Shown here: positions 12,463-17,586 of the stretch, in pieces
Layout: each line of letters starts with the position of its first letter
How positions within the stretch are numbered: the first letter of the stretch is position 1
NCBI GenBank assembly: GCA_000004695.1
Contig: CM000152.2
Coordinates: forward strand, 3,520,001 to 3,584,000
DNA: 64,000 nt
Origin: Dictyostelium discoideum
Lineage: Eukaryota
Reading direction: 5' to 3'
Notes under the pieces: generated by a model
Database searches by the model: none
What the model saw: only the letters and a program-made list of their open reading frames with translations
What the model was told of the DNA's origin: nothing
Translations under genes and position numbers: made by a program

Positions 12463-12603
12463 AAGTGTATTAAAAATATAAATTCTTTTTTTTTTTTTTC
12501 ATTTTTTCTTTTCATCAACAGTTTTTAAAAAACAATTATTATTATTATTTTTATTATTATTATTTAAATAAAAAAGAAAAAAAATAACCTAAAAAAAAAA
12601 AAA

Positions 12604-13548
12604 ATGGATCAAAAATTAGTATATTTAGGACTTTCATCAATGAGTGGTGTAAAATTTAGTGAAATAGTTGAAGAAGATAATATAGAAAGTTCCGTAGATA
12701 TATTAAAAGCACATGAATTATCTTTATCAAGTGGATTTGTTGGAAACTTATTTGCACAATCAAGTGTATTTGGTGGAAACATATTTGCACAATCACCAGA
12801 TATAATTTATGTAAAAACATTGAGTGGTAAAACAATTGATTTCCCATTTCAATCATCTATGCTAATAGAAACACTTAAATCAATGATTTTTAAGAATCAA
12901 GGAATTCTAGAAGATCAACAAAGATTATTATATGCTGGTAAACAATTGGAAGATGGTAGATCATTGTTTGAATATAATATTCAGAAAGAAAGTACTTTAC
13001 ATTTAGTATTAAGACTACGTGGTGGAAATAGTCAGGCATTACAAATTGATCCAAAATATTTCTCACCAAGTTTCAACTATGATTTTACAAATATCATTGA
13101 TGTAAATAAGTTCTTTAGAGGTGGAGAAGAGTATGTTCGTCCATGTGGTTGGATGAGATACGCATTAAATGTTACAAATTTAATAGATAAAGATGGTGAT
13201 AAATGGTTAGGTTGTAATAATACAGATGGAGAATGGCCAGTTTCATATCATGGTACTGGTAAACATGAATCAAAAAGTATAGCTGAAAAAGGTTACGATT
13301 TATCAAAGGGTAAGAGATTTTTATATGGTCGTGGTGTTTACTCAACACCATCAATTAAATGCGCTGAAGCTTATGCAACATCATTCATACATGAAGGATC
13401 AACCTATAGAGTAGTATTCCAAAACCGTGTCAATCCAAAAACATTAATTAAAATTCCAAAATCTCAAACTAATTTTGAAGAATATTGGATTTCACCAAAA
13501 GATGAAGATATTAGACCATACAGTATTTGTATAAAAAAAATTAATTAA
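12604..13548 (+). CDS. Ubiquitin-fusion protein, copy 1, intact. It has a 65-aa N-terminal leader, a ubiquitin domain ending in LVLRLRGG, and a novel 170-aa C-terminal domain that may be an H-Y-E ADP-ribosyltransferase/PARP-like fold.
   Basis: ATG at 12604. [18 protein letters not shown]...[37 protein letters not shown] is about 60% identical to ubiquitin. The C-terminal domain carries [21 protein letters not shown] and NFEEYWIS. Their spacing matches the PARP HGS, GxGxYFA...Y and E-Y-I triad elements. Confidence 0.75.
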
Positions 13549-14056
13549 TATTCAAAAATTAATAAAAAGTAATAAAATTAAAAAAATAAAAAAAAAAAAT
13601 AAAATAAAATAATTAATTTTTAATTTAAAAATTAATAAAAATAAATAAAGGTTTTTCTCTTCTTTTTTTTTTTTTTTTTCTAACTCTAAGGTTTTTATTT
13701 TTTTTCTTTAAATTTATAAATATTAATTGAATTTTGATTAAAATTTTTCTAATGTGATTGTAATATTACTCTATTAGTTCGATATATACATTCCACATTC
13801 AAGATTGATTTTAAGCGAGTTGGCAAAAATATTGTTTATCTTCATTTATAGTATATTGAGCACTTCTCCAATATTAATAAATTTATTTATTTATTTATTT
13901 TTTTATTTTTTTATTTATTAAATTTTCAATGCAAAGTGGTTAATTTGAATTATTCAAAGTGGTTAAAATTCTTTATTTGAAAATTTAAATTCATAAAAAA
14001 AAATAATAATTACACTATATTTATAAGTTAAAATTCTTTATTTTAATTTTAATCCC

Positions 14057-14516
14057 ATTCAAATCATCAATGTCAGTAGATACTCTTAAATATATGATAT
14101 ATTTGCAAGAAGGAATTAAATTGAATCAACAAAGATTAGTATTTGCTGGTAAACTATTGGAAGATGGTAGTAGATCATTATCAGATTATAATATCCAAAA
14201 AGAATGTTTAATTCATATGGTATTAAAATTATGTGGTGGAAATAGTCAAGCATTACAAATTGATCCAAAATATTTCTCAACAAGTTTTAACTATGATTTT
14301 ATAAATATCATTGATGTAAAACAGTTCTTTAGAGGTGGTGAAATTTATGTTCGTCCATGTGGTTGGATGAGATACGCATTAAATGTTACAAATTTATTTG
14401 ATAACGATTGTGATAAATGGTTAGGTTGTGATAATGAAGATAAGAATGGCCAGTTTCATATCATGGTACTGGTAAACATCAATCAAAAAAGTATAGCTGA
14501 AAAAGGTTACGATTGA
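14057..14516 (+). pseudogene. Ubiquitin-fusion paralog, copy 2. It is 5'-truncated mid-ubiquitin, frameshifted at the [10 protein letters not shown] region and 3'-truncated.
   Basis: It is homologous to copies 1 and 3 from [12 protein letters not shown] onward. A 1-nt loss gives [10 protein letters not shown] instead of [12 protein letters not shown], and the frame ends EKGYD*. Confidence 0.7.
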
Positions 14517-14949
14517 TGTTGGTGCAATAAAAAAAAATATCCTTTACAATTTCAAATTGAATATTTTTCACTATTATTATGATTATTACATAATTAATTC
14601 ATTTTTTATTATTTATTTGTTGGTAATTAAAATATTAAATATTTTATCTTTGAGATTTTATATGACCACAACCAGGCTAAATCAAATATTTACGAAAAAG
14701 AAAAAATAAAAATAAAAAATAAGAAAATAAAAAAATAAAAAAATAAAAAAATAATTTTAAATTGGATTTTTTGATGACCTAAAATAATAAGAATTAATTA
14801 TGAATTCCCTCAATTAAAAAATTATAATTTTTTTTTTTTCAAACATAATATTAAATGTGAACTATTTTTTTAATTTTTTTGATTTTTTAAACTACTTATT
14901 ATTATTTTCATTATAATTATTTATTATTATTTTTATAAAAACATAATGT

Positions 14950-14994
<45 letters not shown>

Positions 14995-14998
<4 letters not shown>

Positions 14999-15938
14999 AT
15001 CAACAATTATTATATCTAGGACTTTCATCATTATTGGTGCAAAATTTAGTAGTGAAATAAATGAAGAAGATAATGGAGCGATTTCTGTAGGTTTATTAAA
15101 AATTCGTGGAATGTCTTTATCACGTGGGCTTGTTGGGGATTTATTGAGTGAAATTTATTTAAAAACTTTGAGTAGTAAAACATCGATTACAATTTTTGTA
15201 AAAACTTTGATTGGTAAAACAATTACTCTAGCAGTTGAACCATCAATGTCAGTGGATACACTTAAATCTATAATTTATATGAAAGAAGGAATTGAATTAA
15301 ATCATCAAAGATTAATATTTGCTGGTAGACAATTGGAAGATGACAAATCTTTATTTGATTATAATATCCAAAAAGAAAGTACTATTGTTATGGTATATAA
15401 ATTTCTAGGTGGAAATAGTCAAGCATTACAAATTGATGAAAAATGTTTCTTACCAAAATTCAACTATGATTCTACAAAAACCATTGATGATAAACAATTC
15501 TTTAGAGGTGGAGAAATTTATGTTTGTCCATGTGGTTGGATGAGATACGCATTAAATATTACAAATTTATTTGATAAAGAAGGAGATAAATGGTTAAGTT
15601 GTAATAATGTTGATGGAGAATGGCCGGTTTCATATCATGGTACTGGTAAACATGAATCAAAAAGTATAGCTGAAAAAGGTTACGATTTATCAAAGGGTAA
15701 AACATTCAAATTTGGTTATGGTATTTACTCTACACCATCAATTAAATGCGCTGAAACATACGCGAATTCATTTGAATATGAAGGGTGTACTTATTTAGTA
15801 GTATTACAAAATCGTGTCAATCCGAAAACATTAATTAAAATTCCAAAATCTCAAACAAATGATGAAGAATATTGGGTTTCACCAAAAGATGAAGATATTA
15901 GACCATACTGTATTTGTATAAAAAAATTAATTAATTAA
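14995..15938 (+). CDS. Ubiquitin-fusion paralog, copy 3. The ancestral ATG at 14995 is frameshifted after 20 codons. The intact ORF 15111..15938 may still be expressed from an internal ATG. The LRLRGG motif has degenerated to YKFLGG.
   Basis: [12 protein letters not shown] at 14995 aligns to the copy-1 start but hits a stop at codon 22. ATG at 15111 was verified. The C-terminal domain is fully conserved ([44 protein letters not shown]...[15 protein letters not shown]). Confidence 0.5.
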
Positions 15939-16449
15939 ATTAAAAAGCAATAAAATAAAAAGTAATTTAATTTTAGGGTTTTCTCTTTTTTTTTTTTTTT
16001 TTTTTTTTCTTTTTTTTTTAATTATAACATTAATTTTTTTAAAATTTTAATAATTAAATGAATCTTGGGCAAAAACATTTTTTATCTTCATTATGCTAAG
16101 CAATTCTTCAATGTTAGTTATATATTTTTATTTATTCATTCATTAATTATTATTTTAACAAGCTATTTATTTATTTCTTTTTTATTTTTCATTTTTATGT
16201 TCATCTATTTATTACTGGTTATAAAAATAAATAAAATTTAAAAAAATAAAAAAATATCTAATAATAACCAGAGCCTTGAAAACTTGATGCCCAAAAGTTT
16301 TTTAATTTATTTTAATTTTATTTAAAGAAGAAACTATAAACTAATTTTATTTATTGCAACTTAAAAATGTGAAAAATACAGAAACAAATAAAAAAATACA
16401 ACCGCCAGTCTAAATCGGGTAATTGATTAAAATTTGAGGACTTAAAAAA

Positions 16450-17354
16450 TATAATTATATTTAGAACTTTCATCAATTACTGGAGTAACATTTAATAGTG
16501 AAAGAAATGAAAAAGATAATGGAGGAGGTTTAGTAGGTTTATTAAATATGTATGGAATGTCTTTATCAAGTGGACTTGTGGGAGAAATATTTATTGTGAT
16601 TTATGTAAAAACTTTGGGTGTTAAAACAATTTCTCTCCCATTCAAATCGTCAATGTCAGTGACCACACTTAAATCTTTGATTTATACCAAAGAAGGGATT
16701 GAAGTAAATCAACAAGCTTTAGTATTTGCTGGTAAACCAATGGAAGATTGTAAATCAATATCAGATTACTATATCCATAAAGAAAGTACAATACACTTGT
16801 CATTAAGATTATGTGGTGGAAATATTCAAGGATTACAAATTGATGAAAAATATTTTTCACCAAAATTCAACGGTGATTTTACAAAGATCATTAAGTATCT
16901 TTGTTAAATCACATTACCACAACCTAACCATTTATCACCTTCTTTATCTATTAAATTTGAAAAATTTAATGCGCATAAAGAACAGTTCTTTAAAGAAGGC
17001 GATAAATGGTTAGGTTGTGGTAATGTAGATGGAGAATGGCCAGTTTCATATCACGGTACTGGTAAACATGAATCAAAAAGTATTGCTGAAAATGGTTACA
17101 ATTTATCCAGAGGCAGAAATTTCTCTTTTGGCCATGGTATTTACTCAACACCATCAATTAAATGCGCTGAAAGTTATGCAAAATCATTTGATCATGGAGG
17201 ATCTACTTATTTAGTCGTATTCCAAAATCGTGTCAATCCGAAAACATTAATTAAAATCCCAAAATCTATAACTGGAAATGAAGAATTTTGGATTTCACCA
17301 AAAGATATAGATATTAGACCATATGGTTTTTGTATTAAAAAAAAAATCAATTAA
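16450..17354 (+). pseudogene. Ubiquitin-fusion paralog, copy 4. The start codon is lost and the middle is disrupted by an inverted duplication. The C-terminal-domain reading frame (about 16990..17354) is still intact.
   Basis: The ubiquitin part (IYVKTLGVKTISLPFKSS...LSLRLCGGNIQ) runs into a stop at 16905. The segment 16911..16946 is the exact reverse complement of 16991..17026. Downstream, [28 protein letters not shown]...EEFWISPKDIDIRPYGFCIKKKIN* is open. Confidence 0.7.
16911..17026. repeat. Inverted repeat or hairpin inside copy 4. It has about 36-bp arms, with a roughly 44-bp spacer that is itself an inverted, degenerate copy of the [14 protein letters not shown] coding segment.
   Basis: cacattaccacaacctaaccatttatcaccttcttta (16911-) is the reverse complement of taaagaaggcgataaatggttaggttgtggtaatgt (16990-). 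The spacer, read on the minus strand, is ATGCGCATTAAATTTTTCAAATTTAAT, which is homologous to ATGAGATACGCATTAAATATTACAAATTTA. Confidence 0.8.
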
Positions 17355-17586
17355 ATTTAAAAGTAAAAACAATACAAATAAATAAAATAACTAATTTTAC
17401 AATAAAAATAAATAAAGGTTTTTCTCTTTTATTTTTTATTTTTTTTTTTCCAAACATAAAGGTTTTTTATTATATTTTTTTAAATTTTAAAATATAAATT
17501 GAATTTAAGTAGTTATTTCTAAAATAAAATTTGAGTGGTTTATTCTTCCATAATCTTGACCTTCACTCTATGTTTTTTTTATATCT

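Follow-up and report, generated by a model that had tools for sequence, protein, structure and literature searches.

The locus described here raises the question of what kind of protein is encoded when a divergent ubiquitin ending in Gly-Gly is joined in frame to an extension unlike the usual ubiquitin extensions, and of what becomes of such a protein. The locus lies in a 64,000-nucleotide stretch of the Dictyostelium discoideum AX4 genome (NCBI GenBank assembly GCA_000004695.1, contig CM000152.2, positions 3,520,001 to 3,584,000 of the forward strand; G+C about 22%), referred to below as the window and numbered from its first letter, in which same-strand gene copies form a tandem array at positions 12480-17420. 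A first-pass annotation, made from the DNA letters and a list of translated open reading frames (ORFs), had described these copies as ubiquitin fusions whose extension is possibly an ADP-ribosyltransferase (ART) of the PARP or diphtheria-toxin type. Our analysis indicates that the array encodes proteins composed of a leader, a divergent ubiquitin and a compact PARP-type ART domain, and that they belong to a large uncharacterised family. Taken as a whole, the explanation that we prefer, namely a leader-ubiquitin-ART family whose ART is active and is made as part of a precursor that is cleaved, appears reasonably probable.

The first copy is the sole fully intact leader-ubiquitin-ART gene of the AX4 array, and its parts are as follows.

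12604..13548, plus strand: copy 1, DDB_G0280585 (Q54V68), 314 aa, exact match to XP_641063.1, leader-ubiquitin-ART
12604..12798, plus strand: leader, aa 1-65, with motif 1 (helix 3-14, strand 18-20), a disordered linker and motif 2 (LSLSSGFVG)
12799..13026, plus strand: divergent ubiquitin domain, aa 66-141 (PF00240, E 4e-22), ending LVLRLRGG
13021-13026, plus strand: Gly-Gly codons at the ubiquitin/ART junction
13027..13545, plus strand: predicted compact PARP-type ART domain, aa 142-314 (N142-N314, 173 aa), directly after the ubiquitin
13249..13257, plus strand: H216-G217-T218, predicted nicotinamide-binding HG[ST] motif, aligned with PARP16 H152
13339..13374, plus strand: Y246 through Y257 (Y-x10-Y), predicted NAD+-stacking tyrosines, aligned with PARP16 Y182 and Y193
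13420..13428, plus strand: Q273-N274-R275, a near-invariant, family-specific motif
13480..13482, plus strand: E293, putative catalytic Glu

The C-terminal domain very probably adopts a PARP-type fold. An AlphaFold2 (AF2) model of the isolated domain, which like the ART alignments covers the last 172 residues (S143-N314), gave a predicted local distance difference test score (pLDDT) of 85.9 and a predicted template modelling score (pTM) of 0.83, and its top 50 Foldseek matches were PARP catalytic domains in 50 of 50 cases. When a trimmed family profile was compared with all PDB sequences, it matched solely ARTs of the H-Y-E clade, with ZAP/PARP13 (3.8e-4) followed by PARP16, exotoxin A, PARP15, PARP10 and cholix toxin. 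The profile alignment placed the family His and first Tyr in register with H152 and Y182 of PARP16, and a phmmer comparison of one closer family member with the PDB did the same for the second Tyr and Y193.

Both lines of evidence support the proposal of a PARP/diphtheria-toxin-type ART, for which the first-pass annotation had named structure prediction, with an ART or a non-ART fold as its outcome, as the check. The motifs that it had quoted are all there, i.e., YHGTG (H216), GRGVYST (Y246), AEAY (Y257) and FEEYWIS (E293), and its matching of the H-Y-E elements to PARPs holds for the His and both Tyr, the Glu standing outside the alignment and being assigned by inference. It had also set the extension apart from L40 and S27a, in agreement with which we observed no similarity to either protein and no match to a ribosomal or zinc-finger Pfam model. 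We place the extension in the PARP clan, as a divergent branch for which no model exists, and not in a new fold or superfamily. What speaks against this assignment is that copies 1 and 3 matched no Pfam ART model at threshold and gave no PF00644 hit at E≤1. Both copies produced weak sub-threshold matches to DUF3990 and ART-PolyVal, which we take to be models of the ADP-ribosyl clan. Among 45 family members scanned singly, 34 touched PF00644, and two relatives, P0150 (28.3 bits) and P0128 (29.2 bits), lay above its gathering cut-off of 26.7, so that copy 1 is to be regarded as a divergent relative and not as a model-defined member.

A homology search with residues 142-314 retrieved 169 relatives from Dictyostelium species, bdelloid rotifers, Glomeromycotina and other early-diverging fungi, Entamoeba invadens, a sponge, teleosts and gar, some of which carry PF00644 hits or the UniRef name 'PARP catalytic domain-containing protein'. 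In a profile search of 1.84 billion cluster representatives, 3029 proteins were recovered at E≤1e-3, 1703 at 1e-10 and 505 at 1e-30. The family is eukaryote-specific; a pattern scan, which senses near-exact motifs only, revealed no relatives in IMG/VR viral contigs or GTDB prokaryotic genomes. Expression is documented for at least one member, which occurs as an MMETSP transcript. Members are typically 310-340 aa long, with the ART beginning near residue 150, and a PF00240 domain was present directly upstream of the ART in 19 of 20 sampled members; it is by this ubiquitin-ART fusion that the family is defined. Some relatives have more elaborate layouts. The Balamuthia mandrillaris protein P0150, auto-named 'Polyubiquitin', has the order ubiquitin-ART-WWE, that of the crinoid Anneissia japonica (P0130) carries three protein-kinase domains followed by ubiquitin and ART, and two bdelloid rotifer proteins (P0190 and P0231) have four or five divergent ubiquitin-like (Ubl) repeats and then the ART, with the last repeat devoid of Gly-Gly.

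A ubiquitin-fused PARP clade is not catalogued in Otto 2005 (PMC1266365), Citarelli 2010 (PMC2964712) or a 2026 fungal survey. We found no published description of a ubiquitin-PARP/ART fusion in a search in which the gene identifiers led to one transcriptome table entry and which did not cover the ART review of Aravind et al. 2015. Neither the combination of leader, ubiquitin and ART nor the extent of the family appears to have been described, the ART domain itself being already auto-tagged as PARP in some relatives.

The ubiquitin is preceded by a 65-aa leader that the first-pass annotation did not mention and that is conserved in the family. Its motif 1, with a consensus of about LLxAAFSxxLGxxVxTY, takes up some 20 residues at the extreme N-terminus of full-length members and is common to amoebal, fungal, rotifer, metagenomic and fish proteins; a small hidden Markov model detected it N-terminally in no fewer than 48 family proteins, a count that is partly circular because the seeds were among the searched sequences. 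Motif 2, S..[LF]VG, is situated just ahead of the ubiquitin. The full-length AF2 model of copy 1 (pLDDT 79.8, pTM 0.68) had a pLDDT of 89 for residues 1-10 and below 50 for residues 43-63, and it contained a strand at 146-148 that is missing from the isolated-domain model. In our reading of these models, the leader, a helix plus a strand, would lie packed against the ART core.

The ubiquitin moiety of copy 1 aligned to ubiquitin residues 3-76 with 66% identity across 74 aligned residues, a figure that replaces the roughly 60% given earlier for a 'near-canonical' ubiquitin, of which the LVLRLRGG ending and, by PF00240, the domain itself were verified. Residues L8, R42, K48, K63, H68, V70, R72, L73, R74, G75 and G76 are kept. 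Across the family, identity to ubiquitin ranges from 32 to 76% (median 61%) and is never complete, and K48 and K63 are each retained in under half of the members. G75 and G76 are kept in at least 51 of 55 aligned moieties, and RGG/GG in about 80% of ubiquitin-bearing members. The residue that follows Gly-Gly is G (29 cases), N (14), S, E, R or A, and never Pro. As in ubiquitin precursors, a junctional Gly-Gly followed by a non-Pro residue was found in all four window copies, that residue being N in each of them. The GGNS junction (residues 140-143) had a pLDDT below 50 in the full-length model of copy 1, from which we infer that it is exposed and flexible.

We propose that deubiquitinases would cut the LRLRGG/N junction, producing a leader-tagged Ubl and a free ART domain. 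In D. discoideum the latter would start with Asn, a potential N-degron, since N-terminal Asn is a tertiary N-degron of the Arg/N-degron pathway, and docking of the leader on the ART core could hold the two cleavage products together. Cleavage at Gly-Gly is put forward tentatively, as a step that we judge to fall slightly short of an even chance. Deubiquitinases recognise the RLRGG tail and the L8/I44/V70 patch of ubiquitin, and copy 1 keeps both R72-L73-R74-G75-G76 and an L8/I44-like/V70 patch. Moreover, about 80% of the members hold on to RGG/GG in a ubiquitin that is otherwise diverging, which points to selection acting on its C-terminal tail.

Several observations weigh against the cleavage step. 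Gly-Gly is lost in about 20% of ubiquitin-bearing members, fish members keep leader and ART and have no ubiquitin, and the shared conservation of leader and ART suggests that the leader works in cis with the ART domain; taken together, these three facts speak for cleavage being dispensable and perhaps absent. They favour an alternative that we regard as a realistic possibility, if not the preferred one, in which the protein stays uncleaved and its ubiquitin is a built-in Ubl (cf. Parkin, Rad23, OASL) that regulates the ART or targets it, e.g., to the proteasome or to ubiquitin-binding proteins, or is a mere insertion. An uncleaved protein would also agree with the four or five Ubl repeats of the rotifer members, the last of which has no Gly-Gly, with a ubiquitin that never equals true ubiquitin and evolves with a ratio of nonsynonymous to synonymous substitution rates (dN/dS) of about 0.85, and with a full-length model in which the leader is ordered. 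It is less easily reconciled with the selection apparent on the tail, with the deubiquitinase-type tail and patch of copy 1, or with a junction that is predicted to be flexible and exposed and is never followed by Pro.

A further alternative, compatible with our preferred leader-ubiquitin-ART explanation, concerns the substrate: the ART would modify ubiquitin (its own or free) or ubiquitylated targets that it reaches through the released leader-ubiquitin. The near-universal fusion of ubiquitin to the ART (19/20 sampled members) points in this direction by Rosetta-stone logic, and so does the WWE fused in Balamuthia, a domain typical of proteins that link ADP-ribose and ubiquitin. The sites at which SidE, CteC and DTX3L-PARP9 modify ubiquitin are R42, T66 and G76. 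All three are well conserved in the ubiquitin moiety; they are, however, structurally conserved in most ubiquitin-like proteins. A precedent is the Ubl called 'ADP-ribosylation associated' in the Tetrahymena BUBL1 locus. Since the argument is purely inferential, and fish have lost the ubiquitin yet conserve the ART, we consider ubiquitin a rather unlikely substrate. It is quite improbable, and speculative, that the two halves form a self-contained ubiquitin/ADP-ribose device in which the cleaved leader-tagged ubiquitin, activatable by E1, recruits the co-produced ART, with the leader as docking handle, to proteins freshly marked with it or to that ubiquitin itself, which the ART would then ADP-ribosylate. 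If true, this would be an endogenous eukaryotic counterpart of SidE/DTX3L-PARP9 hybrid signalling in fast-evolving defence or conflict pathways of amoebae, mycorrhizal fungi, rotifers and fish.

We also considered whether the ART is catalytically competent. Conservation was counted over 99 family sequences. H216 was present in 98, G217 in 96, T218 in 95 and Y246 (domain Y104) in 97, and Y257 (domain Y115) was Y or F in 97; Q273 and R275 were invariant, N274 was kept in 97, and Y294-W295 and R304-P305-Y306 were nearly invariant. On this pattern the domain is probably an active NAD+-dependent transferase, with mono-ADP-ribosyltransferase as the most likely type of activity. The third triad residue is the less certain part of the predicted site. 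E293 directly precedes the penultimate strand of the AF2 model (domain residues 152-155) and would be the catalytic acid, and the corresponding position holds E in 49 sequences, D in 24 and another residue in 26. Three facts count against this assignment. The residue is non-acidic in 26% of the family, sequence alignments to PARPs end near domain position 130, short of E293, and a comparison of the C-terminal segment with the PARP1 C-terminus (approximate sequence, with a shuffle control) gave a non-significant z = -0.57. An hhalign comparison with the PARP1 ART sequence, likewise an approximate query, reached a probability of 13% and covered H...Y...Y alone.

Such a variable third residue, together with the fact that the best PDB sequence match is the inactive ZAP/PARP13 domain, is what would be expected of a catalytically dead pseudo-PARP that serves as a binding module (cf. 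ZAP/PARP13, TASOR, RCD1). We hold this to be improbable. Known pseudo-PARPs have lost the His and/or the Tyr (ZAP: Y-Y-V), whereas about 100 sequences from amoebae to fish retain H, G, T, Y and Y at 95-99%. In addition, H-Y-I/L/Y variants at the third residue have been described among PARPs, and a non-acidic residue is compatible with mono-ART activity in PARP6-16 (PMC1266365). Outside the NAD+ signature, aa 172-185 (R..Y.RPCGW.R) and QNR are near-invariant and include, with the C-terminal strand, the arginines R172, R179, R185, R275 and R304. No counterpart of these residues was identified in canonical PARPs, and they may form a site for a substrate or acceptor, possibly a negatively charged one.

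The remaining question is whether the AX4 locus is alive. A tblastn search with copy 1 across the whole window detected four same-strand ubiquitin-ART repeats in 12480-17420 (E 1e-64 to 1e-131; spans 12604-13545, 14046-14513, 15036-15917 and 16455-17333), and beyond them it matched one short inverted fragment only. DNA repeat families among the copies were 77-87% identical across about 300 nt. The four direct repeats with a ubiquitin fusion reported at the outset were thus borne out, with the repeat unit of about 1.5 kb giving way to measured start-to-start spacings of about 1.21, 1.17 and 1.41 kb. All four genes, DDB_G0280585, DDB_G0280587, DDB_G0280589 and DDB_G0280739 in order, are publicly named 'hypothetical' or 'Ubiquitin-like domain-containing protein'. 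The state of each copy was derived from a four-way DNA alignment and frame-by-frame translation, and the features that follow copy 1 are listed here together with the motif 1 sites.

14046..14516, plus strand: copy 2, DDB_G0280587, pseudogene fragment; annotated protein 148 aa
14995..15938, plus strand: copy 3, DDB_G0280589, with a 275-aa ORF at 15111-15938 (XP_641065.1)
16447..17354, plus strand: copy 4, DDB_G0280739, rearranged pseudogene with its start codon lost; annotated model 226 aa
16908..16976, minus strand: inverted duplicate within copy 4, in place of the conserved RGG..RPCGW block
12604-12663 (copy 1 aa 1-20), 14995-15030 and 16447-16494, plus strand: leader motif 1 sites of copies 1, 3 and 4

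Copy 2 begins in mid-ubiquitin, is frameshifted twice in the vicinity of WPVSYHGT and lacks its 3' end, stopping after ...EKGYD; a 2025 transcriptome table lists it under its dictyBase name as 'ubqK_ps2 ... pseudogene', with low read counts (baseMean about 12; PMC12405889). In copy 3 the ancestral ATG is at 14995 and a 1-bp deletion in the leader shifts the frame, as a result of which its 275-aa ubiquitin-ART ORF begins at an internal Met (15111) and is devoid of leader motif 1. The family-invariant residues are all kept in copies 1 and 3. In copy 4, the reverse complement of 16908-16976 matches copy 1 at 13158-13221 and, within copy 4 itself, 16991-17030, and thus duplicates the stretch after the lost block; tblastn reported this segment as a minus-strand match at 16972-16910, and the annotated model of DDB_G0280739 hides the lesion through a predicted intron spliced around it.

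In another D. discoideum assembly (GCA_054859355.1), the syntenic locus (positions 3815-10909) has the same downstream neighbours as AX4, among them the succinate dehydrogenase flavoprotein gene, and contains five intact ORFs of 319, 265, 315, 313 and 302 aa. AX4 copy 1 corresponds to its first copy (92% aa identity) and AX4 copy 3 to its fourth, which is intact with 313 aa (90% aa identity). By diagnostic residues compared by eye, AX4 copies 2 and 4 correspond to its third and fifth copies, and its second copy is without a counterpart in AX4. 'Allelic' copies of the two strains are 8-10% apart in protein, which is seemingly high within one species. In the copy at 6387-7334 of that locus, QNR is replaced by QNC. 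An unrelated eukaryotic contig (ENA ERZ25069786, 41% G+C, positions 1-10684) has its own array of four ubiquitin-ART copies, all on one strand within 10.7 kb and one in a degraded state, and several further pairs of family hits sit on one contig. The array evolves by birth and death, i.e., by tandem duplication and decay, and clustering with decay recurs in the family.

Selection was estimated by the Nei-Gojobori method from 21 pairs of intact copies. The dN/dS was 0.85-1.05 for the leader, 0.84-0.89 for the ubiquitin, about 0.7 for the N-terminal subdomain of the ART and 0.42-0.47 for the ART core (0.33-0.47 when the separate estimate for the copy 1/copy 3 pair is included). These ratios point to purifying selection on the catalytic core and to relaxed or diversifying evolution of the remainder. 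A counterweight is that gene conversion between tandem paralogs could distort dN/dS.

A functionally dead AX4 locus, a relic array in decay whose ORFs were left by chance, would be in keeping with the single fully intact copy out of five ancestral ones (against five intact ORFs in the other strain), with a dN/dS near 1 in leader and ubiquitin, and with the low expression of DDB_G0280587. This is nonetheless distinctly unlikely, given the constraint on the ART core of intact copies, the family-invariant residues preserved in copies 1 and 3, and the maintenance of the family in several Dictyostelium species. The weakest alternative, a conventional ubiquitin precursor such as UBA52, RPS27A or polyubiquitin, could appeal to an LRLRGG ubiquitin passing directly into an extension and to the automatic name 'Polyubiquitin' of the Balamuthia member, but it is hardly credible, since true precursors have an invariant ubiquitin at the extreme N-terminus and that of copy 1 is just 66% identical and lies behind a 65-aa leader; a ribosomal or zinc-binding extension is refuted by the ART fold and by the lack of similarity to zinc fingers, ribosomal proteins or any ribosomal Pfam model.

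As for the biological role of the leader-ubiquitin-ART proteins, their patchy distribution, their tandem expansions with pseudogenes, the copy-number differences between strains and the relaxed or diversifying evolution outside the core would make conflict, defence or stress signalling more likely than housekeeping. Distant resemblance to antiviral PARPs and to Gig2 also suggests defence. A defence or conflict role as such is possible but doubtful, and that its basis is evolutionary pattern alone counts against it.

Crosstalk between ubiquitylation and ADP-ribosylation is an active field that includes DTX3L-PARP9, the ubiquitylation of ADP-ribose, SidE and CteC. To our knowledge, the eukaryotic examples are few and involve multi-protein complexes. 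Here, one small polypeptide joins a Gly-Gly ubiquitin to a predicted PARP-type transferase, in about 3,000 sequence clusters over Amoebozoa, fungi and animals including fish. Since Dictyostelium lends itself to genetics and little more than one intact copy is left in AX4, cleavage, activity and target are directly testable. Were the protein merely a divergent mono-ART with a decorative Ubl, the result would be an annotation fix, with four genes now called 'hypothetical' or 'ubq' renamed as PARP-like ART genes and pseudogenes, and it would still be an example of birth-and-death in a putative defence gene cluster.

Several other genes of the window were also noted. An F-box and WD40 protein, likely an SCF substrate receptor, is encoded at 4824-6893 (minus strand), about 6 kb upstream of the array, and its closeness to a ubiquitin-related array is probably coincidental. 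Directly downstream of the array, at 17587-19038 (minus strand), there is a 483-aa ORF with a (QH)n repeat that had no Pfam match and to which a 442-aa gene of the other strain corresponds. The succinate dehydrogenase flavoprotein subunit gene at 23819-25699 (plus strand; PF00890, E 1e-124), used as synteny anchor between strains, accounts for a local maximum in G+C (0.37). A small septin- or GTPase-like ORF (9549-10103, minus strand) and a protein with DUF4210 and Chromosome_seg domains (21192-23408, plus strand) are without evident tie to the array.

When the family is compared with known systems, its closest structures are those of mono-ART PARPs (PARP16, PARP10/14/15 and PARP13/ZAP), to which sequence identity is only 10-17%. 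It differs from PARPs in an N-terminal subdomain of its own (RGG..Y.RPCGW.R.AL.V..WLG), in the near-invariant QNR and in an IRPYG C-terminal strand. It also has none of the helical regulatory, macro, WWE or zinc-finger domains of PARPs, apart from the WWE of one relative. No PARP clade has been catalogued with a ubiquitin ahead of the ART (PMC2964712, PMC1266365).

The Gig2 proteins of fish and amphibians are likewise small and weakly PARP-like, with a YHGT...GxGVY...E layout and lineage-specific tandem expansion. They form an interferon-stimulated (GCRV-induced gene 2) standalone family with an antiviral association (PMC3617106) and, unlike our family, they have a C-terminal domain of their own and no ubiquitin. 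Membership in Gig2 was rejected, as an hhalign probability of 93.6% covers just 47 columns of the H...Y segment, and no hallmark motif of the family, including IRPYG, was found in the 190 Gig2 proteins of Table S1. By these sequence comparisons, Gig2 is best described as a separate, distantly related compact PARP-like family.

The family resembles Ub-eL40/UBA52, Ub-eS31/RPS27A and FUBI-eS30/FAU in that a Gly-Gly-ended ubiquitin or Ubl is fused in frame to an unrelated protein, and in both cases deubiquitinase cleavage could give two equimolar products, which in the family is a prediction only. Unlike in these precursors, the extension is a predicted enzyme domain, the ubiquitin is divergent (32-76%) and follows a leader, and a fifth of the members have no Gly-Gly. 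Another protist Ubl fused to an ADP-ribosyltransferase is found in the Tetrahymena thermophila BUBL1 'polyubiquitin locus' (PDB 5n9v; PMC8616854). This locus has intein-like BIL domains for processing and conjugation, the adjacent Ubl is described as non-conjugatable, and its ART is named NAD(P)+-arginine ADP-ribosyltransferase in PDB 5n9v.

In fungal PARP6-like-UBCc proteins, the ART is fused to an E2 domain and not to ubiquitin. SidE (Legionella) and CteC (Chromobacterium) are bacterial ARTs of the R-S-E clade, to which the BUBL1-type arginine ART presumably belongs as well, rather than to the H-Y-E PARP type, and the R-S-E active-site signature of the SidE mono-ADP-ribosyltransferase and CteC was not found in the family domain. 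DTX3L-PARP9 pairs an E3 ligase with an inactive PARP in a heterodimer. The fungal fusions, DTX3L-PARP9, SidE and CteC all link an ART physically or genetically with the ubiquitin system, as the family described here would, and they show that ubiquitin may serve an ART as substrate or partner, yet none of them is a ubiquitin-ART fusion polypeptide like those predicted from the D. discoideum array.

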